A stretch of 64,000 nt of DNA from Vermamoeba vermiformis (taxonomy: Eukaryota), in contig JBEWZL010000260.1 of NCBI GenBank assembly GCA_045837725.1, positions 310,001 to 374,000 of the forward strand, read 5' to 3'. Below are positions 24,609 to 52,886 of this stretch, piece after piece (within the stretch, counting starts at the first letter, position 1; every line of letters starts with the position of its first letter). The translations under genes were made by a program, and so were the position numbers. The notes beneath the pieces were generated by a model that did not search any database, was not told where the DNA came from, and saw only the letters and a list, made by a program, of their open reading frames with translations.

Positions 24609-25257
24609 TTGATAATGGCGTTTAATTCAACTGCTTTTAATTTAAAATTGGATTTTTGGTTCTGATCTGGCAGAAATCGCAGAAGTCCCAGCTTATAAAA
24701 TAAAGTCCTCTTTTTTTCGCTGATGATTTGGCATCAGTGTGGTTAACAGTCAAAAAAAAGGACTGAAGCACTTCAAGTTATTTCTCGTGGAACAAAATCA
24801 AATAAAATGAAATTGCGTATTTTGAAACCTTGTTGACGGAAGAAAAGCAGAGAGGGATGTCCAAGAATTTTCTCAGTCAAATACGAAGTAGCCGTATGGC
24901 CAGGATTTATTTAATTCATGTCTACAACCCCTTATCCTGTCCCAAGCGCTACACGGCAAAGAAAAGCGAAAGAGACGAAAACGAAAAGCCAGAAAAAAGG
25001 GAGGGGACAAAGGAGAGGGGGGGAAACGCCCGCGTGGCGGTTAGAGTAAGAACCCGGGGGCCGAGGGGTAAGGGGGAGCCTTGTAATTCCCTCCTCCTGT
25101 TTTTCTTGTTGGCGGTTTTTTTTTTTTTGTTTTCCGGGTTTTTTTCGATTTTTTTTTGGTGCGGGAACGGAATCCTCATTTTGAAGTGATTCACTTGGGC
25201 TTGGACGTGTCATCTTGCCAACAAACTTCGTGTCAAAAAAAAACGACGTCATGGCGG

Positions 25258-27574
25258 CTAACATGGTTCCTCTTTGAAATGCACGAGCATTGGCCACCGT
25301 TCAGATTCGATGTTTTGTGAGGGTGTGCCTACGAAGTGTTATCAATATACCTGAATAGGTAATAGAGTAGTTACACTTACTTCGGTGCACACGGATCTCC
25401 AAGTGCTGCAGTCGCGTCAAAGTTGTCAAATGATTCATGTCAAAATGCGTGCAAGGAGACTTTGCATAGTACAAATCAAAGTGACCTAGTCTCGTCAACT
25501 GTTTCAAGTTTTGCAACGCCAAGATTGAATCTCCGTTTGAATAAATGAATCAGTTGAAATGCTGTTCAATTTGGTGCATTGAGCCAAGTCAGTCCACGGT
25601 ATTGGATCCGATAAATAACCAATGGAAATCTGCTCGAGATTCCCCAATTCTGCCGGATCCATTTCTATCGCACTTTCCGACTCCTTCTGAGAGTCAAAGG
25701 CGAAATTTCGCAGTTTGGTAATGCCGCGAAGGTTCACTAAGCTGGCAACTTGCATTAATTCCAAACTTGTCAAATTACTAAGTGACGATACGTTGAGTGA
25801 CTCCAATGGTTGGTGATAATCGCAAGAGATAGTAAGTGATTGTAAGTTGGTCAAGTTCGTCATATTATCAAGGCCTTTGCATTTGTTCACTGACAAGTAA
25901 AGTGAGGTCAATTGAGTCATTGTCATGAACGGTGCCACGTCATCAAGTTCATAAGCTTCGTTGTGGAGATGTTTCACGTAGAGCTTCAGCGACTCTAACT
26001 TAGTCATCGCACTAATCTCCGCAATGCAATCTTTGTGGTCTTGAAAGATTATCATGTGAAGTGCCTTCAACGTGTCGGTGTTCAACTGTGGCAGTAAATT
26101 CTTCACACTTCCAAAGGGAGCCGCTCCTCCCATTAATAGCGTGAACGACTGTAGCTTTTGTAGCTCACGGACATCGATCGCGTCAATTAGGTGTTGACTC
26201 TTGACCGACAGCACGTTGAGTGACGTGAGGTTAGTGCACTTTGAAATGTGACGTAGTGTTGACATGTCCATTCGAGGTCCAGGAATATACAACGACAAAG
26301 AATTCAATTGGTGCCACGGAATGTCATCTTCGTTCTTTAGCAATACTTTTCGCAATGAGAGTGAAGTCAGATTGCGAAACATGTTGGCTGAAAACTGGTA
26401 CTCTGTGCATCTTTCGTATTCTGGATTGTCAGTAAATAAGGCGTTGTATCCACCTTGGTAATCGATTGACAAAGACCTGATTGGCGTGGGATCGTCAAGC
26501 TTGATGTTAATTGCAGGATCTTCCTGTCCCCAAGTTAGCGCTTTTTCAGGCTTAGATATTAGTTCCAATGACACCAAGTTGGGTAGCGTAATTTCAATCT
26601 CGTTTGTAGCGCGTCGAACGTGAAGACGAGTCAATTTTGACAGGTGTTGAGGAGTTGCAGGTGTGATGTTATCAGCCTCGAGCGACACGAGGTTTGTAAG
26701 ATGAATCAATGTCGGGCCATCAATGTACGCTTCTTTCGCACTCAAGCAAGTGAGTTGAGTGAGTGATGTGAGGTGTGCCATGTCTTGCACACTCAGTTTG
26801 TGAGGTTTGTTGAATGTGAGTCCGAGTGGTTTTTGATAGCGACCAAACACTCGCACCAAATGCTCCATCTCTGATGGGAGAACCAATCCGAGATTGAATT
26901 GCGATAATCCAACACTGTTGAAGAATAATTTGGATACAAGATGGACACTCGATCTTTGATCTTCTTTTGCAATTGATGACGCGATCAATTGTAATAATTC
27001 CAGCGGTAAATCCAGGATATTTAATCCCTAATAAGAGGAATTATTGATAAATGGCTGTAAGAATAAAGAAGCTAAGTATTTATACCTGGGACGGTATCGC
27101 GTTTTGGATCTGTTGTCGTCGGAGTGCAGCCTTTTCTGCGGGCATCTTCGCCAAAAATTCTGATACTTTCGACGTAATTGAATGTACATATTTATCGAGT
27201 GTTGGTGACTTGTCTGCAAGAGCTTCCTCGAACTGGCAGATCCTTTGCTCAAGGTTAATTTTAGTAATTTAAACATTATTTAATTAATCATTTAAATTAA
27301 TTACCCTTTGCTCTGTACTGGGATTTTCTGCGCCTGTTGTAATAATTTGAAAATCTCTTGTCACATCCAGCCTAAAAAAAAAGAATTAAGTAATCTTCGC
27401 ATCAGTTCTGAATCATTTGTAACATAAAAATGATAATACTATTATTGTTGATAGTAATGATTGCTTTTTTAAAGCTCAGAGCGATCCAGCTTACAAAATC
27501 GCTCGTAACTTCCGGCGTACGTCTTGGGAATGTTGAGAAGCCTTCCAGTCGATCACGTCTGCCTTGGCTTGCAT
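25258..27574 (-). pseudogene. F-box/LRR paralogue 2 with extra N-terminal exons; late frameshift
   Basis: ILDLPLELL F-box; 494-aa LRR ORF; single-base shift near 25541 relative to paralogue 3 (DSIDTNGSVLAL). Confidence 0.7.
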
Positions 27575-27682
27575 TATTTGAATAAAGACAATTGATTTTT
27601 GTTGTTAAACATAATTCGTGTCCATTTATTAGCACAGGTTAATTTTTGACCGCAGCAATATTGCAAAGCAACCGAAGCCTTT

Positions 27683-29520
27683 TTATTGATCAACAGGTGC
27701 TTTTGCTTCGCTTTCTGGTAATGCCCTCTGTTGCAAGCAAGGCACACACTGCCTCTCCTTGAAGTGCAATAACATCGGTAACTTTTCCTCTAATATTTGT
27801 TTTGTGACACCAGTCGCTGTGAGGAGCGCGTTAGTAATGACTACTAAGTGTCAATACAAGTACTTACTAGGTACAGTTACTTCGACATGTTGCAGTCGTG
27901 TTAGCTGAGCGATATGATTCGCGTCAAAATGTACGCAAGAGCGAGCAAATAGATTAGCGTTGCCGAGTCTGGTTAAGCGCTTCAAGTTCTCTAGCGCTAG
28001 TACCGAGCCGTTGGTATCAATCGAATCAGTAAGGATATTTTCTAGCAAAGTGCACTGGGCCAGATCAGTCCAGGGTATTGGTGCTGCCGGCCGATTGATG
28101 GAGATTTGATGTGAGGTGTTGCAAGTCATTGATGTCGTAATTGATAGAGCAGTTGAAGTGAAGCTCTTCCAATCTTGTTGTACCACGAATGTCAACATCT
28201 TTAACAGCTAGTGATAGCGATAGCTGTCTCAAATGAATTAAGGACGATAACGAGACACTGTCTAGAGGACAGTTTGCGTTGTCTAATGCAATTTTGAGAG
28301 ATCTCAAATTGGTCATGTTTGTGACATTGTCGAGTCCTTTGCAATTGCCTGCGTTTAACGAGAGAGAGTTCAATTGAGTCATTTTCACAAGTGCGGACAT
28401 GTCCACTGGTTCGTAGTGCAATGTAGGGTGGCGCACGTGTAGATTCAATCGCTTTAAGTTGGTCATCTTACTGACTTCGGCAAAGCAGTCTTCGTGATCG
28501 TGCCAAACGGTCACGTGCAAGCTCGTCAAGGTATCTTTGTTTAACTGTGGGAGAAGGTTTCTCACACTTCCAAAAGGCGCTGCACCACCAATGAGGAGCT
28601 GGAACGATTCCAGGTGCTTCAATTCCTTGACGTTGATGTTGTCGATCATGTGTTGATTGGACATTCCAATAATGTGGAGCGAAGTCAGAGTTGACAGACT
28701 GCGAGATTGAATGCAACAATGCATCGTCAATGCCTTTCGCCGGCATGTTCACCGACAGTGCTTTCAACTGATGCCAAGGGACGTCGGACTTGTTCTGGAT
28801 GAAGACACGGTTCAACGACAGTGACGTGAGAGTGTTACACATATCGGCGGGAAATAGGCAGTAATGTACTGATAGTCACGCTGATCGGACCAACTCCAGC
28901 GATTGCAAGCGCTTGAACTGACGTAGCCAATATTCAGGAGGGCTCACTTCTGATTTGACTGTCAGCGACGTCACAACGGTGCTTGTCGTATTGATCCATT
29001 CGTTGCTAGTGTTTGTAAAGTTCAAGGTCTCTAACTTGCTCAAATGAGCGATGGAAAACGTCGCCAGAGTTTTGACGTTATCAGCCTCGAGCGACACGAG
29101 ATTTGTAAGATGAACCAATGTCGATCCATCAATATACGCTTCTTTTGCACTCAAGCAAGTGAGTTGAGTGAGTGATGTGAGGTGTGCCATGTCTTGCACA
29201 CTCAGTTTGTGTGGTTTGTTGAATGTGAGTCCGAGTGGTTTTTGATAGCGACCAAACACTCGCACCAACTGCTCCATCTCTGATGGGAGAACCAATCCGA
29301 GATTGAAGTGCGATAATCCAACACTATTGAAGAATAATTTGGACACAAGACAGACACTCGATCTTTGATCTTCGTGCGGTACAAACTTAACGATAGACTT
29401 GACCAATTCCGCTGGTAAATAATTAATATTCAAAGCCTGAAAAATAATATCAGCATATTACTCGGATAGGCAAATGTTAAACGTAGGTAGTACCTCGGTG
29501 GATTGGTGATCGTGTTCCAT
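27683..29520 (-). pseudogene. F-box/LRR paralogue 3, disrupted
   Basis: INYLPAELV F-box; in-frame TGA 28876-28878; frameshifts near 28695 and 28110. Confidence 0.75.
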
Positions 29521-29951
29521 TTGATCTTGTCTGCCGTATGGTTGTTCGCTCTTTCTTTGATATATATATAAAATAGAGGCAATTAATTCGAATTTTTTAG
29601 TCCACTAATAGGAATTGGAGGGTTCTTTGTACTTTTCAACTTCCAGAATCCGGATTCTACGGTTAGAGTCTTATCGCTTCGGACTGAGACACCACAATCC
29701 AAAGTTGGTCTTACATATCCTGAACTACTAATAATACACCAGAAAACACCTGAAAAATGCTTTTCAGTCGCGTAGGTAAAACAAATTTTTTTATTTTCTA
29801 TTTTTTATTCGGAGCAGCCGCGAAGAAACACTAATTACGTAGCATGACTCGTCAATAATTCACGAATATGACATTTCCTTGTACTTCTAAAGTTTAATTT
29901 TATTTTTCGTATCGATTATTCGGTAGGTTACAATATTCAAAATCATTTAAA

Positions 29952-30842
29952 TTAAAGCAAAAGAACAGCAACAATATTAACGAGGCCGAATACAAGGCAG
30001 TGAAAGGAGGATGCGCTGCTATTTTTGGTTCCAAAATCAACTGAACCGCTAATAGTGAGATCGTCGACCAACAAGCAGCTGCCTTCGTATTTAGGCTTGT
30101 ATGAGCGAGCGAAGTTTCGCAGAGTGTTTGGCTTGTTTGAAGCAAGCAAACTGTTGCCACAGGCCCAAACGTCGAAGATCACCTCGTCATCGATTGTTTT
30201 GTTGAAAATTCCCACAGGCTCGGCAGGAGAATAGTTAGTATTAATAAGTACGTCGCTGGCGTCCATAAGAACGGGAGTAAAGCTGTATTCTCCGATCGGC
30301 ATCTCGGGATACTCGATGGCAATCTTGGGAGCCTTCTTGCGCAAACGAGCAGCATCGATGTCGGGTGTATCCGGGTGGAATATTCTAAAGTCGATAGTCA
30401 CGTTGGTCTCGCTCCATCTGTACCACCTTCCACGGAATCGATCCGGATTTGGAATGGATAGATCGTCGGGTACAACAAACGGCGAAGAGTTGAAGAGCTG
30501 TTGACCGTCAGGGCCAGGAATGGGTCCGGTAAGTCCAAGAGTATAGGCGTAGCCAGCTTGCGCCATGAACTTTCTTTCAGCGAACTTCGTTCCAGAGGTA
30601 GCGTCGGTAAAGCTAACCACGATATCTTCTTTAGGAGGGAAAAACGAGACGTAGCTTGAGGCACCACAGAACGGAGTGCTCTTGATGAGTACTTGGCCAT
30701 TGACGACCACGTTGATGGATGTTGGGGAGTCCGGGTTGTAAGTGTTGATGACGCGGATCAGCGCTGGACAGTTGTCAGCTGTGGTATGAACAACGCACAA
30801 TACTACAACAAGTGCTAAATAAGCAAAAAGTCTCGGAGACAT
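29952..30842 (-). CDS. Intronless secreted, probably GPI-anchored protein with DUF4397-like N-terminal domain
   Basis: Signal peptide; IRVINTYNPDSPTSINVVVNG...ASSYV; C-terminal SSASS plus hydrophobic tail. Confidence 0.7.
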   Translation of the reverse strand: MSPRLFAYLALVVVLCVVHTTADNCPALIRVINTYNPDSPTSINVVVNGQVLIKSTPFCGASSYVSFFPPKEDIVVSFTDATSGTKFAERKFMAQAGYAYTLGLTGPIPGPDGQQLFNSSPFVVPDDLSIPNPDRFRGRWYRWSETNVTIDFRIFHPDTPDIDAARLRKKAPKIAIEYPEMPIGEYSFTPVLMDASDVLINTNYSPAEPVGIFNKTIDDEVIFDVWACGNSLLASNKPNTLRNFARSYKPKYEGSCLLVDDLTISGSVDFGTKNSSASSFHCLVFGLVNIVAVLLL

Positions 30843-31703
30843 GGTGTTAAATTGAGCTTACTTCGCGACAATTGACGTCGAGAGAGCAGCTTCAAAATTT
30901 ATAGTTGGTGCGTCACGTGGAGATTTTCTGTGACACGATAAGTGACACGTGCACGCCACGCGAATTACTTAAAATAAATCCGGAAACAAAGAACCATCTC
31001 CGAATTAATACTCCGAAATTTAAGAATATTTTTTCCGGATTCAGGTTTCTTAGTCAAAGACATATCCGTCGCTTGCATGTGTTTACCAGGTGTCATTGTA
31101 AGCTCAAAATAGTATTTTGTATGTATTGATTGGTAATAAAGCAGAGAAATCAGAAAAGCGAACGGGAATTAGGGAAGCGGCCCGAGATAGAGGGAGATTT
31201 GTTGGCCAAAATAGTAAAAATTGCCGCACCTATTCTTAGATGTGGCGCTGGGCAACACGTGGATAAATCGGGCTATTATACTTCAATTTCGGAAATAAAA
31301 TCTCCCGTAGTGCTTGCGGCCAGTCGCTGGATCTACCTCGCAGTTACGCATGCCACAGAACCTAAACGCGTAAAATCGAATTATATACCCAACAAATAGT
31401 AAGAACTCACATTTATTGCAACCTTGACGGTAGGTAAATGCTTTTGTCCTCGTGCCTAATATCATTGTACTTAGTGCTCAATTTTCTGAACTTTCAATTG
31501 CACGCTAACAATTGAATGCTTTGTCCTTGAAATACTTTGCCGAAATGCACATATACGAAATCCATCGATGATGTGATCGGGCAATTATAAACCATCTATA
31601 GATGTCATCGGAAACGCGAGATTTTACTAATGGGTCGTAAAGCACTGGATTTGGCAAGTTATGCTTAAAGTCGGCGCAGATATCTAATTGTTTGAATCCG
31701 GCT

Positions 31704-36545: not shown

Positions 36546-37698
36546 TGGTAAAACGACAGCGCATGGAGGGAAAAAGTTTTATACTGAAATATATATACAA
36601 GTTTATTGGCAAATTAACAATGGGATATCTGGTAATCAATAAGATTAAGTGAGGAACTAGCACTGACACTAAGCTGTAGGGTGCTAGACCTTGAGTGGAG
36701 TCACCTCTCACTCTTTCTTATTGCTAGTGGGGTAGCAAGGGCACTCAGTCAAGTAAAGTCACCATTACAGTGAGAGGTCACCAGTGCAGTGATAGAGTTA
36801 TCACCATTACAGTGAGGGTTGTCCCTATTGCAGTGAGAGAGTCATCACCATTGCGGTGATCAAGTCATCACCATTGTGGCAATAGAGTCGTCACCATTAC
36901 GGCGATAGAGTCATCACTATTGCAGTGATAGAGTCGTCACCATTGCGGCGAGGGAGTTGTCACCATTACAGCGAGGGAGTCGTCACCATTACGGCAAGGG
37001 AGTCGTCACCATTATGGCGAGAGAGCCATCACCATTACGGCGAGGGAGTCGTCACCATTACGGCGAGAGAGTCGTCACCATTGCAGTTAGAGAGCCATCA
37101 CCATTACAGTGAGAGAGTCGTCACCATTGCGGCGAGAGAGTAGTCACCATTGCGGTGAGAGAGTCGTCACCATTGCGGTGAGAGAGCTGTCACCATTACA
37201 GTGAGAGTTGTTGCCATTGTGGTGAGAGAGTTGAACCAAGCAAAGTGTCCCATTATGTAAATAAAATAATTAATAATTAATTAATAATTATTTATTATTA
37301 AATTAATGTTAATACTATTAATTAAAATTTAATATGAAGGCTTTATATAATGTTATGCTCAATTAATAAATTATTATTAATATATTATTACTAATTTTAT
37401 TATTTGAATAATAAATAAATTTTCTAATCAGATCTGCATGACCCAATTCATGAAGCATCTTACCAAATAAAATTCATCCATATGTGATATTATATTTATG
37501 CATTATTGCTTATGTTTGTGCGTTTGTGGTGCTGACATGTCAGATCTGAGATAAAATACAGTTAATTTTATTTCTGATCTGATTTTAACACTTTGAGGTA
37601 TAGCACTTACTAATAACTACTATATAAAGTTATATCTACTATTTCTACCATTATATGCCTTACATTAATACTTTTCCCCCTGCGCTGTCGTTTTACCA
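36546..37698. mobile_element. Non-autonomous TIR DNA transposon (MITE-like), TA target
   Basis: Perfect 18-bp TIR TGGTAAAACGACAGCGCA extending imperfectly to about 30 bp; TA at 36544-36545 and 37699-37700; no transposase ORF. Confidence 0.85.
36759..37232. repeat. Tandem minisatellite, about 21 copies of a 23-bp unit (TCACCATTRCGGYGAGAGAGTCG)
   Basis: TCACC-type starts recur every 23 nt from 36822 to 37190, with shorter degenerate flanking units. Confidence 0.95.
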
Positions 37699-38050
37699 TA
37701 ATTCGTCTTAAGTCTGACTGTGTCCTCTCCTGTGGTATTATTAGAAATGAGCCATATTTTAGCAATTAATTCCCAGAACAAACCTTGATTATCGAAGATT
37801 AACATGAACCGCTCTGCTATATCTCGGAGGGTACCTTCTGTTGGTGCATAGAACTTGACATTTGTAAAGAAAATCACTAATGATAATAGTTTGTTCATGA
37901 GATTGAGTCAAGTAAGATTATTATGACGTACACTTCATTTTCGCTCGTTCAACCAAGGCAAAAAATTCGTCCTTTGCCAGATCCGATGAGAATTTAACTT
38001 GCTACGAGTATACTATTAGCCTTATTTGACTAAACGAATTAAATTAGTAC

Positions 38051-38237
38051 TGTAATATAACGGTGAGATCTACGCTCCTTTCGCCGTTATCTCCGTCCCA
38101 GAAATTCTTTCCTATTTTAGGCAACTTTATGTGAATCGGATCCGCCATAAATAGCGTTCCGAAATCTTGTATTATCGACACACTTGTAGTAAATAAATCA
38201 ACACACGTCATTATAACAAAGTAAGACTTTTATTACA
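38051..38237 (+). repeat. 5' LTR
   Basis: TGTAATA...TATTACA; identical by eye to 44812-44998. Confidence 0.98.
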
Positions 38238-38239
38238 TT

Positions 38240-38252
38240 TGGCGACACCGTG
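38240..38252 (+). promoter_or_regulatory. Primer binding site
   Basis: TGGCGACACCGTG 2 nt after the LTR, complementary to a tRNA ending ...CGGUGUCGCCA. Confidence 0.8.
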
Positions 38253-38273
38253 TTTAACGTACCGCTCGCAGAC

Positions 38274-39735
38274 ATGGCTGAAGAATTCGGCAAATCTGTC
38301 AACGAGTCAGCGCGTAAAAAGAATGGACTAGACCCTAGAAGAGAGTCTACTTTTGACGTGACTACAAGTGAGTTCCTCCGTTATATTTGTTGTCGTGGAA
38401 ATTTCTGACCGAGATCCAGTCAGCGAATCACCGGATGTACCCATGCCGAGCGATTCTGTCCCTTCCAGTCCAGCACCAAGCCCCGCGCCTGTGCTTGGAC
38501 CTAATAACAACAATTCTCCCAAGTCTGAGAAGGAGAAAACGGAGAAGAGGCCAAAACTCTCGCTCCTCTTCGACGAGACCGGCGACGCTTCACGAGCCGC
38601 GAGTTCTTCTGAACAGAAGCAGCCTTCTGACTCTTCTGAGAAGAAGGAACAGACTACAACTCCGGAGCAGCCCAAGGAGAAGTCTGGCGACGTACCTCCA
38701 CCCGGTAAGCAACCCGAGTTAGGCAGCCAGTCTGCAGCTGGTGGTCAGGCTCCGGGGGGCAACAAGACCGGTGGTAGACGCTTTAGAACGCGCAGGGCGC
38801 CAAGCCCTCCTAAACGTGGTGATCAGCCAGGAGATGGTGATCCTTCCTCCAGCGATGACGATGTCGGAAATAACCCCGACGGGGGTTTGAAATTTCAACA
38901 ATATTTCCAAAGCCACGAGCACGACGCTTCGAAGCCAATGATTCGACTTAGTCTCCCAAGCTCCGTAGATGACTTTAAGGGTGATGGCTCTATCACTCTC
39001 GAACCGTGGTTCGACCAAATCTACAGCGCAGCTCAAGCCGCTAATTGGAGCACGGACTACATCTATTACGTGATGAAGAATCGCCTCAGGCCTCCAGCAG
39101 CGGACTTTATAGGCTTGTTCCCGCCTAAAGAGACCGACACTCAAGAGAAACTCGTCGATCGTCTGACGTCACTCTACGGGAAAACTCAGACAGATGTTCT
39201 CGCTCAACACCAGAACATCATTCGTCACCCTCAGCTCCCTGAAGAGAATTTCCGTCAATATCTCAACCGTCAGATGGCAAATTTCCGTACTCTTAACGCA
39301 TCAGACCGATTCTTGCTCTTACGCTTCAGTCTCCGTGACGAGTACAATGAAGAACTGCGACGCAAGGATATCAAAGACTTTGAGAAAGCTTTGGTTACCC
39401 TGATGGATTACGACAAGACTCGTCGTCCCGCACCAGCTCCCGTGACAATTGCAGCTGAAGTGTCTGAACCGTCACTCCCAGTTTCTTCAATCAACGCACT
39501 CTTTGAGCAACGCTACAATCGCTTTAATGAGGTGCTTGATCGCCTTGCTTCACTCGAAGCTAACATGAACAATTTGGCCCGAGTCTCGCAGAGCTCCGCT
39601 CCCGCGAAATGGTGCACGTTCCACAAAGTCAGTTCGCACAACGACAGCGAATGCAAGGCCCAAAAGCAACAGCTCTCTGGCAAGAGGCAAGGTCAAGCGC
39701 AAGAGGCTACTCATAAATACCATGCAAAAAAATAA
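38274..39735 (+). CDS. gag: Gag (predicted join 38274..38367, 38420..39735)
   Basis: FKGDG...WF capsid-like start, QLPEENFRQY, CHHC-type knuckle CTFHKVSSHNDSEC; first ATG joins the main frame only through intron 38368-38419. Confidence 0.85.
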
Positions 39736-42700
39736 TGCAGGTCCGAGTTGACTCGCCTCCGCGACCTAAGCCCTCAGAGTCAGTTAACGCTCAACCGCAC
39801 GTGGACAATGTGGTTGTTCTACCTCCCGCTCCAAACCCACCAACCACTGTTATTTCAGACCCGAATGAAGGTCAGGACGACACTAAAACGCCTGTTTTTG
39901 GTCCTGTGACCGCTAACTCACATGAGGTCATGGCCATGTTCGACACTGGCGCTGGTCGGTCCTGTGTATCTCGCGACTTCCTCAACAAACTAGGCAAAGT
40001 CCGCGTTACTTCATTTCATGGTGATTCACTCTCTGGATTAAATCGCTTCCCACTGAACATCAAGACCGTCGCGTACATCGAGGTCTGTTTCGCTGGTGTT
40101 CGCATTACTTGGCCTTTCGGCATTGTACATAACTCCGCAGTTGATCTTCTCATCGGGAATGATCTCATGGGCAAGGTTAATGCTAATGTTAGCCTCGGCG
40201 GCAGTTATGTGAAGACCAGTCACGGCAAGGTCCGAATCACATATGACAAGAGAGACATTTTCTTCAACCGACAACGAGTTGTGTTAGATCGTGACTTGGA
40301 GTTTAAACCATTCACGGCCTATATCAATCCCATCGCTGTCTCGTTACGACCCGATACTGTAGCTATTATGGTTCCGTCACCTGATCTACAACACGAAACT
40401 TCGATACGAAGCGCGTGTACTATCGACAGTGTCTCTTCTGATGGTCTTATTATGCTGAATTTGGTCAATGGCACGATGTTTCCTATCACTCTCAAGAAAG
40501 GAACCGTTATTGGCGAGCTCAATCCCGTACTCTACAATTCCGTGAATCTCATTTCAACATTGACACCTGTCAATCCGTCACCCGACACCGAGGAGCAATT
40601 TCTCTCTCAATTCTCCTTCGACAGTAGTCTCAGTCCCGAGCAATTGATCCAGATCAAGAAGGTCCTTCTGGATTATCGCGATAGATTTTTGAACAAGATC
40701 CATTCGACTGACGTAATTCAAACTAACGTCAAACATCGCATCATCACCGAACCTCACGCTCATCGTGTCCAGTCTCAGCCTTATGTTTTTGGTCCCACTG
40801 AGCGCAAGATCGAGAGTGACGCTATTGACGAGATGCTTGCGTCAGGCGTCATTGAACCCTCAGCTTCACCTTGGTCCTCACCCGTGGTCTTAGTGCGAAA
40901 GAAAGATGGCTCTATCCGTTTTTGCATTGACTATCGGCGTCTCAACAAGACAACCGTGCGCGACATGTACCCGTTGCCTCGTTTGGACCATACTCTCGAT
41001 TCTCTCTCTGGCATGGTCTGGTTTTCGACCATGGACTGCGTCTCTGGATACTGGCAAATTATGATGCACCCAGACGACGTGGAAAAGACTGCCTTCGTCA
41101 CACACCGCGGTCTTTATCAATTCAAGGTGATGCCCTTTGGCCTCGTAAATGCTCCGATGACATTCCAACGCGCAATGGATATGATCTTGTCAGGACTCAA
41201 GTACGAGATCTGCCTTTGTTATCTCGACGATATCATCGTTTTCTCCCGTACCTGGGAAGAGCATTTGAAGAATTTACGAACTGTCCTCGAGCGTATCAAG
41301 TCGGCAGGAATATACCTTAAACCCACAAAGTGTCAATTCGCGCGAAAATCCATTACATTTTTGGGTCATCAGGTTTCCTCCGATGGCGTCACGATCACGC
41401 ACGAGAAAGTAAAGGCCGTCATGGATTTTCCCACTCCAACGAAGCCCGACGACATACGAGTCTTCCTTGGCTTGGTCAACTTCTACCGTCCCTTCTTGCG
41501 GAATATTGCAAAAATTCAAAAACCGTTAACGGATCTACTTAAGACAAACACGTCTTGGACGTGGAATGCTACAACTCAGTCAGCGTTCGACACAATCAAG
41601 CATATCTTCGCGCACCCGGACCTTCCACCCGGAGTTCTTCCCGGACTTAAAAATTTCACCTTTTGTTAGCTAGCTCAGTATCCTATTGAGCCAATTTAAT
41701 GCCTTTTGGCAAGATAAATCTTTGGGACCTAACAATACTTTCCACAAAAAGTGGCTGAAAAATTCAGTAACAGCTCTTATATATATCTCATTTAACATCG
41801 ACATGTCTCGTTTGAGATGAAAAACGATCGGCAGATTCCTCCCCTTCACCAACACATTTGGTTGACCTGATATTTGTCAGGAGTGATCTCCATGATATTT
41901 ACTTAGATTTGAAGGGGAAGTTCATTTTGTTAATTGGAGGTTGCCATTGGAAGTGGTACACAATTTTTTTTTTCTTCCTGCACCTTTCCAAGAGCCAAAT
42001 CAATGTTACTTCAACATATATTTGATAGTAATAAGACCTCCATTATTCAAATGACAAGTTTGGCACTCTGCAAAAAAGCTGAAGGCTGTTGCCAAAAATT
42101 TATAAAAAATGTGTCAAACATGTTCTAACTTCCAAAATATATTTCAATAGCTCTGTTGGAGGGGCAAGTACCTCTAGTATAGAGGATTGTATATCTGCAA
42201 AATCTCAAGCAGGGCATCAGCTGTAATGCAGGTAGCCATTGTTTAGTACGATGTCTTTTTGAAATTGAACAAAATATAAATACCAATTTTCTCTTCATTA
42301 CAGCCAGTTAAAAAATAAACTTCCGGTTTAAAACAAGGACCATTCAACATAGAAATGTTCCACCAAAGATCTCTGAAAAAGATATCATTGGCATGAGGCG
42401 ATCCACTGCCGACCTCAAAAATGGCCAACTTTGATAAATTGTAATTTTCTCCCTTCTATTGCTAGCTTCCTTATTGAAACAAAGCTGTATCTTGTTCCTT
42501 ATGTATCAATATGTTTGAGGTGAAAAAGGTTTGGCCTAGCTACCTGAGTAAAGGTAGGGTAGCCAAAAGTCACTCTGGGAGGAAGTCCGGGTGGAAGGTC
42601 CGGGTGCACGAAGATATCCTTACGTCTAAACCCGTTCTTGGTTTACCTGACTACAACCAACCCTTCATTCTCGCAACCGATGCTTCTGGTACAGGAATAG

Positions 42701-44790
42701 GCGCTGTACTATCGCAAGCCAACATCTCCGGTCCTCCCGAACGAGTTATTAGCTATTATTCAAGGTCCCTCTCTCCCGCTGAACGCAACTACTCAATCAC
42801 CGAGTTAGAGGCATTGGCAATGGTCAAAGCCATAGAGCACTATCGCCCGTACCTTTTCGGTCGAAAGTTCACTGTGGTCACTGATCATTAAGCGCTTGTT
42901 TATTTGCACACGAATAGACAGCCTACTGGTCGTTTAGCCCGCTGGCAAGCCGCGCTGATGGACTATGACTATGACGTCGTGTTTCGAGCAGGATCTAAGC
43001 ACACCAACGCTGACGCTCTCTCGCGTTATCCAGTTGCAGCACTCGCGTCTACAACGACTACACCATGGCCTTGGACACGTGAACAACTCATAAAGGCTCA
43101 AGATGAAGACCCTTCGATCAACTATATCAAGGACTTCATCGTACATAAGACCTTTCCGAGAGACCATCTTCAACGATTCTATACGCTTATGTATAAGCGT
43201 GAATGGCTAGTTGACGACAATATCTTGTATCGCCTTTTCGACAACCCCGTGACCCAATCGACAATTCGACAGCTAGTAGTCCCTGAGCCTCTACGCAAGC
43301 TCGTACTTGAGCACTCGCATGATGGTCTACTAGGTGGTCACTACGGCTTTAACAAGATGTTCTATCGAGTACGACAAGACTTCTATTGGCCCAGCATGGC
43401 AGATGACATACGTCAGTACGTCCAGACGTGTGAATCTTGCAATGCGCGAAAGCTCTCACTCGACAAACAAATCGGAGATCTACAACCGTTTCAGTCTCAC
43501 GAACCGTTCGACATTATTGGTGTTGATCTCGTAGGTCCTCTTCCTAAGACCCGCGAAGGATACCAGTATATTCTCGTCGTACAAGATCTGTTCTCGAAGT
43601 GGGTAGAAGCCTTTCCGATACGCACGAAAACTGCAAAAGAAGTCGCTGACGTCTTAGTAAGCGAAATAATCTGCCGTTTTGGTTCACCTCGACAGATTCT
43701 CTCAGACAACGGAAAAGAGTTTCTCAACGAACTTCTCTCCGCGATCTGTGACATCGTTGGATCCGTCAAGATCTTCACTGCGCCTTATCGACCTCAAACC
43801 GACGGACAAGTAGAGAGATTCAATAAGACACTGGTCAATACGCTCTCTCACTTCACCAACGAAAAAGCAACGACTTGGAATTCCTTTATTCCGTTTGCTT
43901 GTTTTGCTTATCGAATCACACGTCAAACGTCAACTCACGCGTCACCTTTTGAAATCCTCTTCGGAAGAATTGCGCGATCCCCGCTACTTAATGGAATTCT
44001 ACAACCCAACGATCTCAACATTGACCCAAACTCTTATGCTCATGAGATCTCGAAACAATTCCTGACCGCGTACGACATTGTTCGACGACATATCAAGGAC
44101 TCTCAAGAATCCATGGCCCATAATTACAACTTGCAACGTAGAGACTTTAGCTACGGAGTTGGTGATATGGTCTGGATGCAAGTTCAAAAACGAAGACACA
44201 AGTTCGCACCAAAGTGGAAAGGTCCGTTTATTATTATCCGTAAAAACAGTGATCTTAGCTACGTCATTCGCGAGCTCAACTCGCGTAAGAAGCGAACTGT
44301 CAACGTCAATCAAATCAAGCCCTTTGTTTCACGTCATGAATATTCCGATGAAATTCCCGAAAAAAATTCAACAGAATCGGAACAACCTGCTCCAAGTCCT
44401 AGTTCTGAGCTTGTTGAATCGTCATCTCAAGACCTCTCGCATGACCTCACACCTATCCCTTCAATTCCCGCTCCTTCAGTTCCAGCATCCGCTCCATCTA
44501 CATCTCGACGAACGGATCGCTCAAAGTCAATTCTACAAGTGTTAGCAGAGACTCTTATTGATCTGCGTCGCCGCTTTGAAGAATTGCCTACTTACCCACT
44601 TCCTGCGCTCAAGAATCAACTACGTGATCTCCTTGGTCCTGGATCTGTTTTTCTACGCTCCAGTACTCTTAACCGTAGTTTCAACACGCGCATCTCTCAG
44701 CTCGACACGCGTGTAAAAGCTCTTTCGCTTTTACAGCAGATCACCACGAATTTCAACACGGAGTTCGCGGTAGAGATAAACGGCAAGTAG
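39735..44790 (+). pseudogene. pol: Pol (PR-RT-RNaseH-IN), interrupted by an insertion and a nonsense codon
   Basis: FDTGA, RFCIDYR, MPFGL, YLDD, TDAS, HHCC zinc finger, D-D-E core, WKGPF; insertion 41606-42613; TAA at 42889-42891 in TDH*AL. Confidence 0.95.
41606..42613. mobile_element. Non-autonomous TIR element nested in pol
   Basis: TIR CTTCG(C/T)GCACCCGGACCTTCCACCCGGA; flanked by ATAT on both sides (or TA if the TIR is 1 nt longer); removal restores AAG CAT ATC CTT ACG (KHILT). Confidence 0.93.
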
Positions 44791-44800
44791 CTTTCTCTCA

Positions 44801-44811
44801 GAGGGGGGAAA
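44801..44811 (+). promoter_or_regulatory. Polypurine tract
   Basis: GAGGGGGGAAA immediately before the 3' LTR. Confidence 0.9.
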
Positions 44812-44998
44812 TGTAATATAACGGTGAGATCTACGCTCCTTTCGCCGTTATCTCCGTCCCAGAAATTCTTTCCTATTTTAGGCAACTTTATGTGAATCGG
44901 ATCCGCCATAAATAGCGTTCCGAAATCTTGTATTATCGACACACTTGTAGTAAATAAATCAACACACGTCATTATAACAAAGTAAGACTTTTATTACA
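44812..44998 (+). repeat. 3' LTR
   Basis: Direct repeat of 38051-38237. Confidence 0.98.
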
Positions 44999-46611
44999 GT
45001 ACCTTGATTCTTTCGAGAAGTGTCAATTTGACTTTGATCCGATTCGTTACAAATTCCATCTCTTTCGCCCAATCAGTTTCGTTATTCAACAATACTCTAA
45101 ATACTCGTTCTAATTCATTGGTGATATCTCCGCGCCATTTTCGCTCTTCTGATTTGTTTAAATCCCTGGGACTGTAACGCCTGTCGTTATCGCTGGTGGA
45201 ATACGAAGCATCGCTTCGCTCAATTGTTGGGAACATAAAAGCAAACTCCGCAGTGGGTACTCCGAATAAGCCAAGCCATCTCTTGATTGGCCGCACATTC
45301 TGGTCTGTCCAAGGATGGATCTGGTCCCAATCATCTACATCCGCAGTGATGCTCAAAGTCTTTGTCGTTGAACTATTGAGGCTCTTCAATGAAAACTCGT
45401 ACTCAAGGTTTCGCCAGCTCTCCTGCTCATCGTGATCGTAGCCCGTAATGTCGTGACACTTGGCTTGGACGTAATGGCCCTCGGATCCGAACCAGAAAAA
45501 ACGACATTTTCTCTATCCAAACGTAAGCTATAGCTACGTAATGTATACAACATACGATCTATATTAGAAATAGCGCCATCTGTACCGTCATTATACCTGC
45601 CAACCTCAGATTCCCAACCTGCACGAGTCAGATCGCAATTCGAAATTTAGAAGAGAAATTACCTGTGTAGACTAGTGATTTACAATGCTGTTCGACCAAA
45701 GTACGAATCTTTTTATCCATTTTTTTCTTCTTGTTGTCCACCAAACAAACGATCATGTTCGATAGCTTTTAAACGTGTGGACAGATCCAAAAGTGAACTG
45801 AAGTCTCTTGCCTTTGCCGCAACGATAGCACGCTCCAGTAGTACGTAAATATCTTTATAATGGATTAGTTAAAGAATACGAGGTCAAGATACACGTACCC
45901 ATGTTCGAGTAAATTCTTTTCACTTGGTTGGGGAAAGAAAATGCCTTCGATAAAGGAAGCCCTATAATTCCGATTAATGCGGACTATATTTTCAATGTTA
46001 TTTACCTAAATCCGTTGAGATTTTACGGTATAAAAGGCCGCAATAAATTCTCCTCCAGTTCTTGAAACAAAAAATAATGGGACTGCGGATTCCAAGGGGA
46101 CGGCCTTCAATATAACCTCTAGGCATTCAATTGGGATATCTGAGATATTTATTAAAATTTCTGTCGTAGATCCGTGGGCAACTTTTTGTTTTTTATTTTG
46201 GCGCTCTTCTAAATCCTCTCTGATTCTTTTCCTGCTTATTTTTCCCTGCGAAAATAGAAAGAGGTTAGTATTTAGCCAATTGCAGGCAAATCGTGCCAGG
46301 TTTACAAACCCTTGATGACATCGTTTCCTTTGTCAGACCTGGCTTCGGTTTGAGTCGTGTTCTTGGGTTGAGTAATGCTGAATGATGAAGCAACGCTGTT
46401 TTATGCTTTGTTTGCGCAATTTTTTTCCAGGAATTGTTTTTGTGATCCAAGGCCTAATGACACGTGTCATTCCGCCGATTTCGTCTATTGTGGATTATTT
46501 CGCCAACCAGTTTAGCTAGCTTATTAAGGCCGTTATCCTCGGAACGTCCAAGTAAATAGAACTAAAATTTAAATCGGATCTCAAAAAAAATTGCGGAAAA
46601 ACTTTTTATCA

Positions 46612-49600
46612 TTATTGCTGGTTTGCTTGCATTTCTTTTAACCTGCGCCGTTCTTGATTAGCTTTGTATCTTTCGTCTTTAGCCTTGAGATTCGCTTCAC
46701 GCTTTTGTCGTGCGATTTCGCGGTTTAATTCTCTTTCTTCGGGCGATCTATTAATCTTGTTCCAATGGACCGAGTATTTCTTGAATTTCCTAGAACTTTG
46801 ATAAACTGCTAATAAGTTCTTGTATTCTACTTCAGTGACTCGTTCCTTGATAAACTTGAAAAATTTGTTGTTCGGATCCAACATCTTAATTCGCATGTCT
46901 TGCTTGGCTTGCTAAATAAGGCAATAAAGTTAGAATACTATGATTATATATTGCTCTACGTACTGATAATGTGTAACCGAATCCTTCGCCAACTAATCTA
47001 TTATACACGAAGAAAAAGCTTCGCCAACTGTTGTCCGCAGAAAAAATAGCACCGTTGAAATTTCGCGATTCCGGAGTGATCTCCGAGTTCCTCGCAATAA
47101 TTTCCTCGTTACTTTGCTGTGGCTCCTGATGTTGCTTAGCCTCCGAGGTCGGAGCGTTATCATTTTCGTTTTCGTCGTTGGCGTCGTCCAGCATCCACAC
47201 CTCGTCAAAATCTTCCTTATCAAAAACCTCGCCGTAATTACGTTGCAATTGCTCTTGCTCTTTTAATTCTTCTTCAGCAAGTCTAGCTTTATCAGCCTCC
47301 GCTTGTTTTTGACTGCTGAATTGAATGACCGGTCCACCAGTTTGTCGATCAAAAGCTGTCGGCAAGTTATCCAAATCGATGCCTTTTTGTTGAATAATTT
47401 GTCGCTCAGTCAATGTGAAATATTTGTTCAGATTCTTAGGTGGCAATGAATCCCTGTAAAAAAAAGAGTCGTTAGCTCCAGACTTGGGAGACAAAATATG
47501 ACCAAAAATTCTAGAAAGCGAAATCTTTGTAAATATTTATCGCAATGATCGCGTGATTTGATATTGTCACGTGACACTGCCGTCTTCAATAAACTATGGG
47601 GGCAAACTTACCAGGCAGCCACAGAGCGCGAGTCGCTGTACTCTTTCAAGTAATGACGGATCAATTCAGCGATGACAATAACGTCCGATCGATCGAAATT
47701 GACACCACGTGATAGCGGATTGAGCGTTTCCATCCTAAGAAAAAAACGTTTCTTAGAAAAATTGAAATAAAATAAGTTCGCAGGGTTCTAATAATTACCT
47801 TTTCCTCCTATCTTTCTCAAAATTTTGTTTCAGTTCTGAAATTTCAAGAATTTCTTTCCGCGTGATCATTTTCTCTTCAGTGTCGAGCGGCAATTTTTGT
47901 GCGTCAATTTCGTCCCACAATTCTAACGCCTTTGCAGGTCGTTTCATCAACAACGCAGCCTTAATCATCAAATTATAGGTATGTGCATCAGGTCGTTGAT
48001 CTTCTGGCAGTTTTTTCATCGGTTCAAACACAAACTCCCGCATTCTTTGAAACGTGTGTCGTGCTTCACTTCGTTTGACATATTGAGCCAGACCAATCAT
48101 TTGCTCGCACCTCTTTTTCGTTACTTCGCTGCCGTACTCCAGCATTTCTTTCCAAGAAAACAACGCCTGGTATTCTTCGTTAGTTTTTTTTTGACGCGAA
48201 AAAGTCGAGTCGATATTTGCACTTACAGCGTTATAGAATCCACGTTGAGATTGCATAGTAATCAATTCCATCCATACAGTTGAAGGAATCTTCGCCTTTC
48301 CTAATAAGGAAATATCGTGTTAAAATCATTTGCTCGCTCAAATTGGGATCCGTTGTTTGGATCCGTTGTAACTTACGTTTTTTCAATGAATGCACAAACT
48401 CTTCTACGTATTTAACATCAGGCAATGAGCGAATGACGCTAAGGTAGATCTCATCCATGTACTTGAAATTTCTCGTTTCAGCCATTTTCACGACATCGTT
48501 CACGACGTCCATTGGCGGACGAACATTTCTGAAGGACAAAAAGATTGCTTTCCAGACCTTGACTTCTTCTTTCTCCGTTACGGATCCAGGGTGCTTTAAG
48601 AGGACGTCTAACAAGTTAATCGCCTATTGTCAATAATTAGGACCATGAACTGTGATTTAATTTTCGTGGATCGGATCTACCTTGAAAGTATCGCCGTTTA
48701 AACAGTGCATGAAGATCAAATTGTAAATAATATCGATATTATAGTCTGAGAGTTGAATTTTATCGACGAGAACTGCTGCCAAGTCCTTTTTGCCAGCAGC
48801 CGCATAACCCCTGATGACGACCAAAAATTAGCAAAGTCACAAGCTTCTACGGATCTATTTAAGCCATAATACGACAAGAGATGTCAATGATAATAACATA
48901 TATTAATATGAACGTACCTGGCCATTAAGGAGTAGGTCAGCGGTGTCGGCTTTATACCCTTGCTGAACATCTCTTGGAAAGTCATATTCATGAACTCGTA
49001 TTTTTGTTGGTACAATCCGAGTCTTAGTACTTCATAATACAAACTCTCCGTAATAGTAATTCCTAATTAGGAAATATTAGAACAGATCTCTTGCCGATAT
49101 TCAAGCCATACCAATCCTTTCTAATTGTTGCAAAAGCTCTAATACGTGATCCATACGTCCACGCCATAAAAATATTTTTAATAGCACTAATGCTGCTTCT
49201 TTTCGCGCCAATTTTCTTTGCTTAATGGCCAGGTCGGCGAGTTCAATAATTTCCTTGTCATATTTTACATTCCTATATATTATATTATTAATATGGTCCA
49301 TAATATTTAGCGTACTATTGACGTACTCTACTTCAATCTCGCCGAGTTTGGTTAATAATTTCATTAGATGCACTTTCATCGTGGTTTCACTCAACAGCTC
49401 GATGAATAATTTCTTAATAACATCAAATTGCTTTGATTGAGAACATAATTCGACGAGTCGGGCCTGTGTAGCTATAATACAAGGTTTTATTAACGAGTTA
49501 TTAAAAAGATCAGATCCGAACATTTTTGTATCAAGTAATTAATTATTTTAATGGCGGGTATTATTTTAGTATATGATATTTATACTGTCTAAAAGAATTA

Positions 49601-49877
49601 ATATTATATTTTGAATTTTTGTAAATTATTTTCATTCCGTGATCTTACTTGGTGAAGACAACGTCAACAAATCAGTCTGCTCGTCGGTTAATAAATTAAC
49701 TGGCTTATTATCCTTTGATTTTTCCGGTGATGAAGCATCAGCTCTCGCAGATTTGACTTTTGTCGTGTAACTTCTCGACTGTAGAACGCGAGATCGGACT
49801 GCAAATAGCGTGCCATGTGTAGTTGTCCTCGCTTTAGTAACAACAGCGCTACAGCGCCTAAGTAGCGAGGATAACAT
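46612..49877 (-). CDS. Mitochondrial pentatricopeptide-repeat (PPR) protein
   Basis: Presequence MLSSLLRRCSA; PPR-like motifs GIKPTPLTYSLMARGY and RPDAHTYNLMIKAALLMKRPAKALELWDEI. Confidence 0.75.
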
Positions 49878-49995
49878 CTGTTGTTTTCAGATCCAAACAA
49901 TTAATTTTATGAAAACGATTACTCGAATGTAGAAGGCGGAATAAATTGAAATTGTAATGTTTTATATTGAATCGGTTATATACAAATAAATATTT

Positions 49996-52886
49996 TTAAT
50001 GCATGAGTATGCTTGCAATGGCGAGGACGACAAAGGCAAGAGAGTTGATGAGAACGGATCCACTGCTGGTAACTTGATTGTTAACCTAAAAAGGGCAAAA
50101 CCGTTAGAAATTTGTCTCTTATATTACGGTAATATATATATGTATAAAAGTCTTTAGCCATTCGCCTCTGAATACTCCATCATTCAAACGTTAGCAGCAC
50201 TTGATCAACTTTTTTTCGTACCGATTCAGGAGTAGCAGTAACAGGCGTTATAACAACAGTAACAGGTGTTTGTTCGACTATTGGAGACGCAACGGGAACG
50301 ACTGCTATAGGGGGAGTACTTACAATAGGAGTACTGGCAGTGGGTGCGAGTTCAGTAATGGGTGTTTGCGTAGTAACGGGTGGACTTTGTTCGATGACTG
50401 GAGTAGCAGTGCAAGTAAGACCGCATTTGTTAGAGTCTACAATCTTGAAGACCGCCTAAGAAAATTAAAACGTTAGATTGATCTGATCCGGATTTGGATT
50501 TTCGATTTTGATACTTACGTCTTTAGCCAAGATGTACATATCGTCGTTGCGATCCTGACCGAAGCTGAAGACAATATCAAGAGTTCTGCAAGCCTTAGGA
50601 GAGCTAGAAGCGCACTTGGTGCTGACTTTGTACATGTTCCAAACGTCAGATCCGTCAGCGACTTCTTTGCCTTGCAGAAGAACACCAAAGTAATCAGCGA
50701 AGAGGTAAGTGCCTTGCAAGCAAGGGTTCACCGATGAGCGATAGACGTAGCCACCGATAACGCAAGCAGGGTCAATAAAAGTTCTGTAATAGGCCATAGT
50801 AGGAGGCACGCGATCAGGAATGTCAGGCTTGTCAGTGCGATGCACTTCCACTCCTTCGTAGCGAGACCAGCCGTAGTTACCACCCTTTTGAATAATATCC
50901 ACTTCTTCTACAACCTACAGCACAGCATTAATTAACGGTTCCAAACGATGACCAGATCTTGCGATAATCGAGTAAAAGTTCTAATTTTGAATATCGTATT
51001 AAAGTACTTACCGCACCACCAACGTCACCGACCCACATCTTGCCAGTAACCTTATCAAACGAGAATCTGTAAGGGTTTCTCAAACCATAGGCCCAGATCT
51101 CCCCCAGAGCATCAGCTTGGTTGACGAACGGGTTATCAGAAGGAATAGCGTATTGTTTGCCTAGCATATATATTAGATATATAATGCTATATGAATAATA
51201 GTCAGCGAATACTTACCGTTTTGTTTGTTGTTGACGTCAATACGCAAAACTTTGCCGAGAAGGCTCTTGAGGTTTTGAGAAGAATAAAAAGGATCGTCTT
51301 GATAGCCACCATCACCAGTAGTAGTGTAGAGGTAACCGTCTTCAGGACCGAAATGCACATCTCCTCCGTTGTGGTTGGCGTAAGGGTGAGGATACTCTAA
51401 GATTCTGCGGACAGCGGTAGGAACAGCAGTGTTGGCTCTAAATAGCATAATATGATTAATTTACTATCATTATCATACTAATCCTACTATATTTTTGTAA
51501 CTTACGACCAATCACCATCAACTTTGTACTCTTCAATGATCTGCACGTGCGACAAGTTCTCGCAGTAGCCGTCAGCTTTGCAGTTGCCGTAAGGACATCC
51601 GCGATCACACTTCCATTGGCAGTTAGCGTTGCTAGGAGGGCAAGAATAGACCTAAACAAATTGTAAGATCAGATCTCCGGATCGCGCACTTGGTGTCATT
51701 TTTTCAATCTACGTACCACATAGAACAAGCCGTTAGTCTCGTAGTTGGGGTGGAAATTCAAGCCGTGCATGCCAGTCTCTCCGTTGACAAAAGTCTTGCC
51801 GCTAATATCCAAGAAAGTTCCGGAGATTGTTTGCGTATCTTTATCGTAGATATCGATTGTACCGCTCTACGTATGAAGTTGCATTAATATATATTGCCAT
51901 ATTAACAAAAGTAAGATATTTTCTGATCTTTTTGATTCCGCAAATCATTTCAAATGAGATCCCGTTAAAAACTTACCTGAGTACCGAGGAATAAACGATT
52001 ATCCTTTTCAACAGGAGTGACGGCCATAACGAGGTAAGTCTTAGTATCCAATATTCTTTCAACGCAAACCTAATATCAAGCCATTTAGCGTCAGTTTAAA
52101 TAAATTGCAAATTAGCTAATTACCGTTTCAGTGAAATTACTGTCGGTAATGACAGTCGGTACGAAAGGGGTGCCAGAATAGCAGTATTGGCCAGAGTTAG
52201 TCTTATAAGCGGCGCAGAAAGCATTTTGAGAGGAGTAGAGCTCGTCTAAAAATAAAATTGTTAGGGATCGGATCCAGCAAAGTTATTCCGCTTAATCTTT
52301 ACGTACTCAAAGAGATTGAGCGCTTTTGATCATCGAATGGGTTAGCGTTGATGACTACATTTTGACAAGCGTTCCATAACTTTCCGCAATAATCGGTGCA
52401 AAGAAAAGGGGCTTCACGAACACCGTTGCCAGACTCGGCATCTGTTGCAAAAAGTTAGTCTTAAACTCATACAAACCAGCTTGCTATGCCTACCAAACAG
52501 ATGCGCAGCCCAAGGATCACTAAATAATTATATTAATAAAATTCAACGGAGATTACAGAACACAAATCCGATCCTACCATCTCGAGCAGAGGATCTGTTG
52601 AAGCAGAGTACGGCATTCGCCAGCAGCGACGCCAATATTGGCTAGTTCAGTTTTAATAGTAGCTTCAGTGTCTATAGTGCAGCAACCTGCGTCGTTGTAA
52701 TCAGTGCAGAGTTCGAGTGGTGTCGCGGGCTAGAAGTTAAAACGTTGTTAGCGCTTGATCTGTGTTTTCAGAGTAAGTATTCGGACTTACTTTAGCAGGG
52801 CCATCACCATTGACGCACAGAGGGTGCGTTCTTATCGCACCAATGAGTAGCAGTGAGATGCACAGAGTTAATAAAAACTTCTTCAT
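49996..52886 (-). CDS. HIPL/HHIP-like protein (Cys-rich domain + glucose/sorbosone dehydrogenase propeller), P/T stalk, GPI-like tail
   Basis: Signal peptide, HPLC, GCC, NHNGG..FGPEDGYLY...GDGG, LGKVLRIDV, IPSDNPF, WAYGLRNP, GGNYGW. Confidence 0.92.

Follow-up and report, generated by a model that had tools for sequence, protein, structure and literature searches.

Introduction

In the elements whose RNA is known to be spliced (Ogre, copia, BARE, the retroviruses and Cer1), Gag is, to our knowledge, still translated from unspliced RNA. Retroelements usually lose introns, since spliced RNA can be reverse-transcribed. In Ogre, a plant Ty3/gypsy element of the Tat lineage, an intron is spliced from a subset of transcripts and its removal allows translation of the polyprotein, according to the relevant section of PMC6317226 (Ogre is also cited in PMC3735527). 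For the Ty1/copia elements copia and BARE1, the pertinent part of PMC3735527 describes splicing that makes a Gag-only RNA, with the spliced RNA kept out of replication, and for BARE it describes separate RNA pools for translation and packaging. In Cer1, as outlined in PMC10309623, an accessory protein comes from a spliced (cerv) mRNA and Gag from the unspliced genomic RNA; the same portion of that paper states that genomic RNA with an intron has to avoid both being retained in the nucleus and being degraded. Finally, a passage of PMC7175516 links a cryptic intron of the Schizosaccharomyces pombe Tf2 element to RNAi and describes SCANR (spliceosome-coupled RNAi) in Cryptococcus.

Here, we describe a Ty3/gypsy retrotransposon in a 64-kb stretch of DNA (the window) which carries a candidate spliceosomal intron of 52 nt in gag codon 32. 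As with Ogre, at least as Ogre is portrayed in the section cited, there would be a spliceosomal intron within the element, the full polyprotein would come only from spliced RNA, and genomic copies keep the intron. Unlike in Ogre, the intron's position in gag codon 32 would make every protein splicing-dependent, with the gag:pol ratio set separately by a putative -1 frameshift site. Nor was an intron of the Ogre kind found between a gag-pro ORF and an RT-RH-IN ORF: gag and pol overlap at a slippery A7, and the sole gap in pol is a nested insertion with terminal inverted repeats (TIR).

With copia and BARE1, in the account quoted above, the element would share the creation of a distinct translated RNA pool by splicing. 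In those elements, however, splicing removes pol or makes a stop after gag, which yields an excess of Gag while the unspliced RNA is translatable, whereas here splicing would open gag. Pol is neither removed nor truncated by the candidate intron, since its 52 nt lie 5' of nearly all of gag and pol stays accessible. The retroviral 5' leader, with its donor 5' of the packaging signal, and Cer1, as far as the cited part describes it, are similar in having a donor near the primer-binding site or gag start and an unspliced RNA that serves as the genome. Yet they take Gag from unspliced RNA and produce accessory or env mRNAs via distant acceptors, whereas here the intron is 52 nt long and Gag would come from spliced RNA. 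Tf2 and SCANR, to the extent covered by the passage in question, offer introns in transposon transcripts, hosts with short introns, and splicing tied to the fate of transposon RNA, but there the introns are described as triggers of defence and not as being needed for Gag translation.

A first-pass annotation of this DNA had held that the known spliced LTR-element RNAs are arranged differently. This stands for the arrangements of Ogre, copia and BARE, although splicing-dependent translation itself has precedents in all three. Among the LTR elements covered by the full-text literature searched (open-access main texts), we came across none whose intron lies in the N-terminal portion of gag. What appears to be new here is an intron in the N-terminal gag codons that would make all proteins splicing-dependent, a feature that none of Ogre, BARE1, copia, Cer1 and Tf2 has.

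Results

The window contains a single complete LTR retrotransposon, at 38051-44998 on the + strand. Its two LTRs, each of 187 nt with TG...CA ends (38051-38237 and 44812-44998), are 100% identical, and both junctions, when inspected, were found to carry a 4-bp target-site duplication, GTAC (38047-38050 on the left and 44999-45002 on the right). The primer-binding site (TGG..., 38240-38252) begins 2 nt past the 5' LTR, a polypurine tract (AGAGGGGGGAAA, 44800-44811) adjoins the 3' LTR, and no tRNA gene that would pair with the primer-binding site lies in the 64-kb window. Pol starts with protease and reverse transcriptase (39717-41606; Pfam RVT_1 at 7.9e-38, with weak aspartyl-protease matches), continues with an RNase H domain (42614-42891; Pfam RT_RNaseH_2 at 3.7e-32) that ends at an in-frame TAA (42889-42891), and closes with an integrase (42892-44790) in which Pfam identifies a zinc-binding domain, a core and an SH3-like C-terminal domain, with a long C-terminal tail. 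All of these features lie on the + strand. The domain order by Pfam, PR-RT-RH-IN, is the Ty3/gypsy order, and the element is a Ty3/gypsy (Metaviridae) LTR retrotransposon. The element has no env-like ORF, and the pairing of donor 38368 with a distant acceptor to express one was rejected for that reason. No further copies or solo LTRs of this family occur elsewhere in the 64-kb window.

Gag has a stop-to-stop ORF of 38362-39735 and is read here as two exons on the + strand. Exon 1 (38274-38367) comprises 31 codons, starting with the ATG, and the first base of a split codon; exon 2 (38420-39735) comprises the final 2 bases of that codon and 437 further codons, followed by TAA at 39733-39735. Between them lies a putative phase-1 spliceosomal intron of 52 nt (38368-38419, + strand), to which signals, frame, colinearity with homologues and retention in the DNA contigs of two samples (X1 and X3) all point. 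A heptamer, A AAA AAA (39726-39732, + strand), sits directly 5' of the gag stop, and the pol frame, which is -1 relative to gag, is open from 39717; the heptamer is probably a -1 frameshift site. AKK is also the C-terminal end in 3/5 of the full-length Gag homologues. Although gag gave no Pfam match, its exon 2 encodes a knuckle-like C-X2-H-X4-H-X4-C that is conserved among the aligned homologues. At the gag C-terminus (39600-39660) the knuckle reads W-C-X2-H-X4-H-X4-C, so that His occupies the position of the second CCHC Cys; most aligned Gag homologues (P0003-P0010) share this form, while P0011 is without the W-C start.

The surroundings of the element include a tandem array at 36777-37231 (about 20 copies of a 23-nt unit with 80% matches), 0.8 kb 5' of it, and, at 22700-30900 on the minus strand, a cluster of F-box and leucine-rich-repeat ORFs (Pfam F-box, LRR_14 and LRR_4), apparently several short-intron genes. 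Elsewhere in the window are globin, Tim10, kinase and CCT-beta genes, the last as a fragment that marks the host as a eukaryote and no more than that.

The copy at 38051-44998 is itself dead, despite its identical LTRs, because of a nested insertion of about 1 kb and an in-frame TAA. The insertion (41607-42613) is a non-autonomous TIR element with inverted ends of about 48 nt (90% complementary) and a 5-bp duplication, ATATC, and it interrupts the RT/RNase H region of the retrotransposon. Retrotransposon copies without it exist, as shown by a joint, 41601->42614 (1012 nt skipped), in the DNA of both X1 and X3. A second, large intron was considered as the cause of the 1.2-kb gap in pol and rejected, given the 48-nt inverted ends, the 5-bp duplication and the absence of this stretch, as DNA, from other copies. 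The TAA (42889-42891) falls inside the RNase H domain (TDH*AL). Being defective, the copy is silent by itself on current function. An empty-site joint, 38020->44999, was found in DNA run X1 at a depth of 441, and the insertion is polymorphic or hemizygous. In the empty-site allele of X1, 25 different letters replace the last 30 nt 5' of the LTR; hence the haplotypes differ in the flank. The 100% identity of the LTRs and the empty-site allele together indicate a young and polymorphic insertion, in which several private indels within 50 nt would be unlikely.

The first ATG after the primer-binding site, at 38274, lies in a strong context (gcagACATGG) and opens a frame of 31 codons and 1 nt that runs up to 38367. 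There follow a 5' splice site, GTGAGT (38368-38373), a branch site, CTGAC (38405-38409), whose branch A is 11 nt from the 3' end of the intron, and CCAG (38416-38419), with the 3' splice site CAG at 38417-38419. Taking out this 52-nt interval joins the two halves of the split codon A|TC and carries the reading on in the gag frame. In unspliced form, the frame from 38274 ends at a TGA (38406-38408) inside the intron. The first-pass annotation had given this structure (38274, 38368, 38405 and 38419; 52 nt; the A|TC frame join), and every position is correct on the sequence; its figure of 45 codons before the unspliced TGA includes the stop, the sense codons numbering 44. Before gag, ATGs also occur at 38323, which opens 2 codons; at 38435, which opens 95 codons in another frame; and at 38443, which lies in the gag frame but in the weak context cccATGc. 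The T content of the intron is 37% vs 19-21% in the flanking exons.

How often would such signals fall together by chance? Both strands of the 64-kb window were scanned for GTRAGT followed by CTRAY at most 35 nt from a YAG, with a total length of 40-90 nt. The scan returned 23 intron-like sites of 45-79 nt, against 8.8 +/- 3.0 in 50 block shuffles, an excess from which we conclude that the host truly uses introns of this form. At a chance rate of about 7e-5 per position, about 0.012 sites would be expected in the 170 nt between ATGs 38274 and 38443, a figure that does not yet require restoration of the frame.

Host genes in the window provide further points of comparison. One intron candidate (9814-9754, minus strand, 61 nt) falls exactly where two ORFs continue a single Pfam kinase profile. 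Another intron (46963-46912, minus strand, 52 nt, GTACGT..CTAAC..TAG) is supported by RNA, through a joint in run X24 (46911->46967) that was resolved by sequence. That the gag intron matches host introns in size and signals, as had been claimed from the sequence alone, thus agrees with candidates of 45-79 nt, an RNA-supported host intron of 52 nt and similar signals. Of the RNA runs X22 and X24, which bear the same species label, one placed 11 reads and the other 24 over 12.6 kb; identity was mostly 90-95%, and the runs therefore appear to come from a diverged strain. Most of these reads belonged to a neighbouring host gene and hardly any to the retrotransposon, too few to show splicing either way.

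Gag homologues were drawn from a full HMMER scan, which gave 9 proteins, plus their cluster mates. The full-length members from other families are P0010 (484 aa), P0003 (503 aa), P0011 (500 aa; 14 cluster members), P0005 (505 aa) and P0004 (445 aa). When placed ungapped on residues 1-31 of these proteins, the exon-1 peptide is identical at 21/31 positions in P0010, 13/31 in P0005, 11/31 in P0011 and 10/31 in P0003, and 0/20000 shuffles reached the score of each of these four matches. The match to P0004 was weaker (6/31; 325/20000 shuffles), and that to P0009 (3/31) was not significant. BLASTP of the exon-1 peptide aligned residue 1 on residue 1 of P0005 (E 1e-7) but gave no convincing match to P0003, P0004 or P0011, for which homology is based on the ungapped shuffle test and a MAFFT alignment. 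A word-based gag search at near lengths recovered no protein besides the one predicted from the window itself, which begins at Met 38443, and the 44-residue upstream ORF had no match among longer proteins, where cluster representatives may be without an N-terminus, as P0002 is. Given this homology between the exon-1 peptide and the N-termini of other Gag proteins, ATG 38274 is the true Gag start and the upstream ORF is not a regulatory uORF. The proposal that Gag opens at ATG 38274 is thus borne out by the N-termini of four Gag families.

The position of the junction can be examined in the same proteins. The first 12 exon-2 residues after the split codon were placed, ungapped, at the best of 90 offsets, and this was residue 33 in both P0011 (8/12 identical) and P0003 (5/12). 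Since 31 residues and the split codon precede exon 2, the placement at residue 33 means that the window has exactly 52 surplus nt compared with P0011 and P0003, which is the length of the GT...AG interval.

P0010 belongs to the closest family (44-46% identity over Gag, and 71% over the first 35 residues) and differs from the other homologues at this point. Its residues 32-35 are the translation of a conserved A|GTGAGTTCCT, that is, of codons that spell the 5' splice site. Past A|GTGAGTTCCT P0010 diverges, and exon-2-like sequence returns only 19-20 residues later (best offset 52 vs 33), the homologous stretch being open and in frame and read straight through. These 19-20 extra residues are absent from P0011, P0003 and P0005; the P0010 boundaries and the absence of the intron from these three are both deduced from predicted proteins, on the assumption that gene callers ignore introns. 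Between the window element and the P0010 family, arithmetic from the alignments gives a net difference of 5 nt in the intron stretch, which is no multiple of 3. Extra sequence that begins precisely at a conserved 5' splice site, changes by indels that are not triplets and is missing from three families has the look of an intron, and the P0010 family probably carries the intron too, there open and in frame by chance. A continuous ORF here in sister copies had been named as grounds for rejecting the intron, in favour of a simple 1-nt indel in this copy. The relative P0010 has such an ORF, which counts against the intron; its distance from the window element is not that of a single 1-nt indel. 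Scans of metagenome, genome and viral contigs with gag, P0010, P0003, P0011 and PR-RT found no DNA of related families.

Retention of the intron was examined in contigs of the two DNA runs, X1 and X3, placed on 37400-50000. Contigs from both runs cover the intron site and keep the 52 nt, and an intron-less joint, 38367->38420, is not among the four joints found in them. The X3 contig differs over 38145-38552 by 6 substitutions and a net +1 nt, and the latter does not bring gag into frame with ATG 38274. Exon 1 shows a single listed variant, a synonymous A>G at 38327 that occurs in X1 and X3. Just 3' of the intron, one X1 contig departs from the window: its match ends at 38436 and 28 unlike letters follow, which may reflect another variant copy or an assembly break. 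Hence, to the question of whether genomic copies retain the intron, the contigs of these two samples answer that they do.

Discussion

On the strength of its signals, its effect on the frame and its colinearity with related proteins, we consider it likely that 38368-38419 is a genuine U2-type GT-AG phase-1 intron in gag codon 32. A gene caller reads this region otherwise: it chose ATG 38443, where the frame of the long ORF has its first ATG, for a product of 430 aa (P0001). With the stop of the upstream ORF 29-37 nt 5' of ATGs 38435 and 38443, one could take that ORF for a mere uORF of 44 codons, have Gag translated from ATG 38443 by leaky scanning or reinitiation, and regard the splice signals as coincidental; the zero junction reads would agree with this, in RNA runs (X22 and X24) almost without reads on the element. 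The uORF peptide, however, is homologous to the Gag N-terminus in four other families, and is thus Gag sequence rather than regulatory sequence. In addition, ATG 38443 has a weak context and three other ATGs ahead of it, the splice signals would arise by chance at a frequency of about 0.012 or less, and removal of the 52 nt yields exact colinearity. Gag translation from ATG 38443 is, in our judgement, very unlikely. We give still less credence, to the point of regarding it as scarcely credible, to recoding, in which ribosomes would pass from one frame to the other, by +1 frameshift or bypass, within the overlap at 38362-38405. Both frames are indeed open over 44 nt, and programmed frameshifts are used by LTR elements. 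Against this, visual inspection revealed none of the known +1 signals, low-efficiency recoding at the Gag start would leave the element short of its most abundant protein, and the recoded product would contain about 17 additional residues with no counterpart in P0011 or P0003.

The continuous frame of P0010 raises the further question of whether the family formerly had such an ORF throughout, with a frameshift leaving the Gag N-terminus defective in this lineage, which would now depend on intact relatives for mobilisation in trans. That P0010 reads through the homologous stretch fits this history, as do the other lesions of the copy (the nested insertion and the TAA) and a copy number that, from the depths, seems low in X1. 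The two sequences, however, are separated by a net 5 nt rather than by any single indel, and the extra residues of P0010, missing from P0011, P0003 and P0005, begin exactly at GTGAGT. The X3 copy, which is from another sample, has the same arrangement, its net +1 nt leaving the frame unrestored, and the LTRs are identical in an insertion that is polymorphic. A frameshifted lineage would also need a perfect 5' splice site, branch site and 3' splice site by coincidence, and we think there is little chance that this is the explanation.

If 38368-38419 is a real intron, then full-length Gag and Gag-Pol come only from spliced RNA. Transcription would start in the 5' LTR, splicing would take out the 52 nt, and ATG 38274 would then read a Gag of 469 codons, which a -1 frameshift at A AAA AAA (39726-39732) would extend to Gag-Pol. 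RNA left unspliced would meet a stop after 44 codons and give no full protein; unless protected in some way, it might be subject to nonsense-mediated decay. The intron is still there in genomic copies, so reverse transcription must use unspliced RNA as its template. Splicing would thereby create two pools of transcripts, one translated and one copied, and every copied RNA would rely on proteins from another RNA molecule. The occurrence of splicing, the -1 shift at the heptamer, the division of the RNA and whatever part the intron may play in packaging are inferences.

The first-pass annotation had suggested just such a sorting of translated mRNA from genomic RNA. This follows by logic if the intron is real, but the block on unspliced translation is not conserved, P0010 being open. 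Indeed, because the stretch is open and in frame in P0010, blocking the translation of unspliced RNA is no conserved design; the conserved feature, if there is one, would be retention of the intron itself. Persistence of the intron across diverged families would imply a mechanism that keeps spliced RNA from the replication pool. As to the annotation's further suggestion that the intron might carry a packaging or dimerisation signal, the predicted RNA fold of 38180-38450 (z = -2.59, with 3/200 shuffles folding as well) is too weak to support a packaging structure. We offer only tentatively, as a possibility that we would not bet on, the fullest version of this model: that in a lineage of at least two diverged families the gag-start intron is an obligatory switch, with spliced RNA as the sole Gag/Gag-Pol mRNA and unspliced RNA as the sole template; that packaging or dimerisation determinants overlap the intron, so that spliced RNA is kept from particles; and that replication is wholly trans-complementing and set by host splicing efficiency.

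Retroviruses and LTR elements have long posed the question of how a transcript's role as mRNA is separated from its role as genome. If our reading of gag is true, no full-length protein would be made without splicing, and the mRNA and genome roles of the transcript would be cleanly split in a simple and testable system consisting of one 52-nt intron. The activity of the element would then be tied directly to host splicing and to the surveillance of intron-containing RNA.
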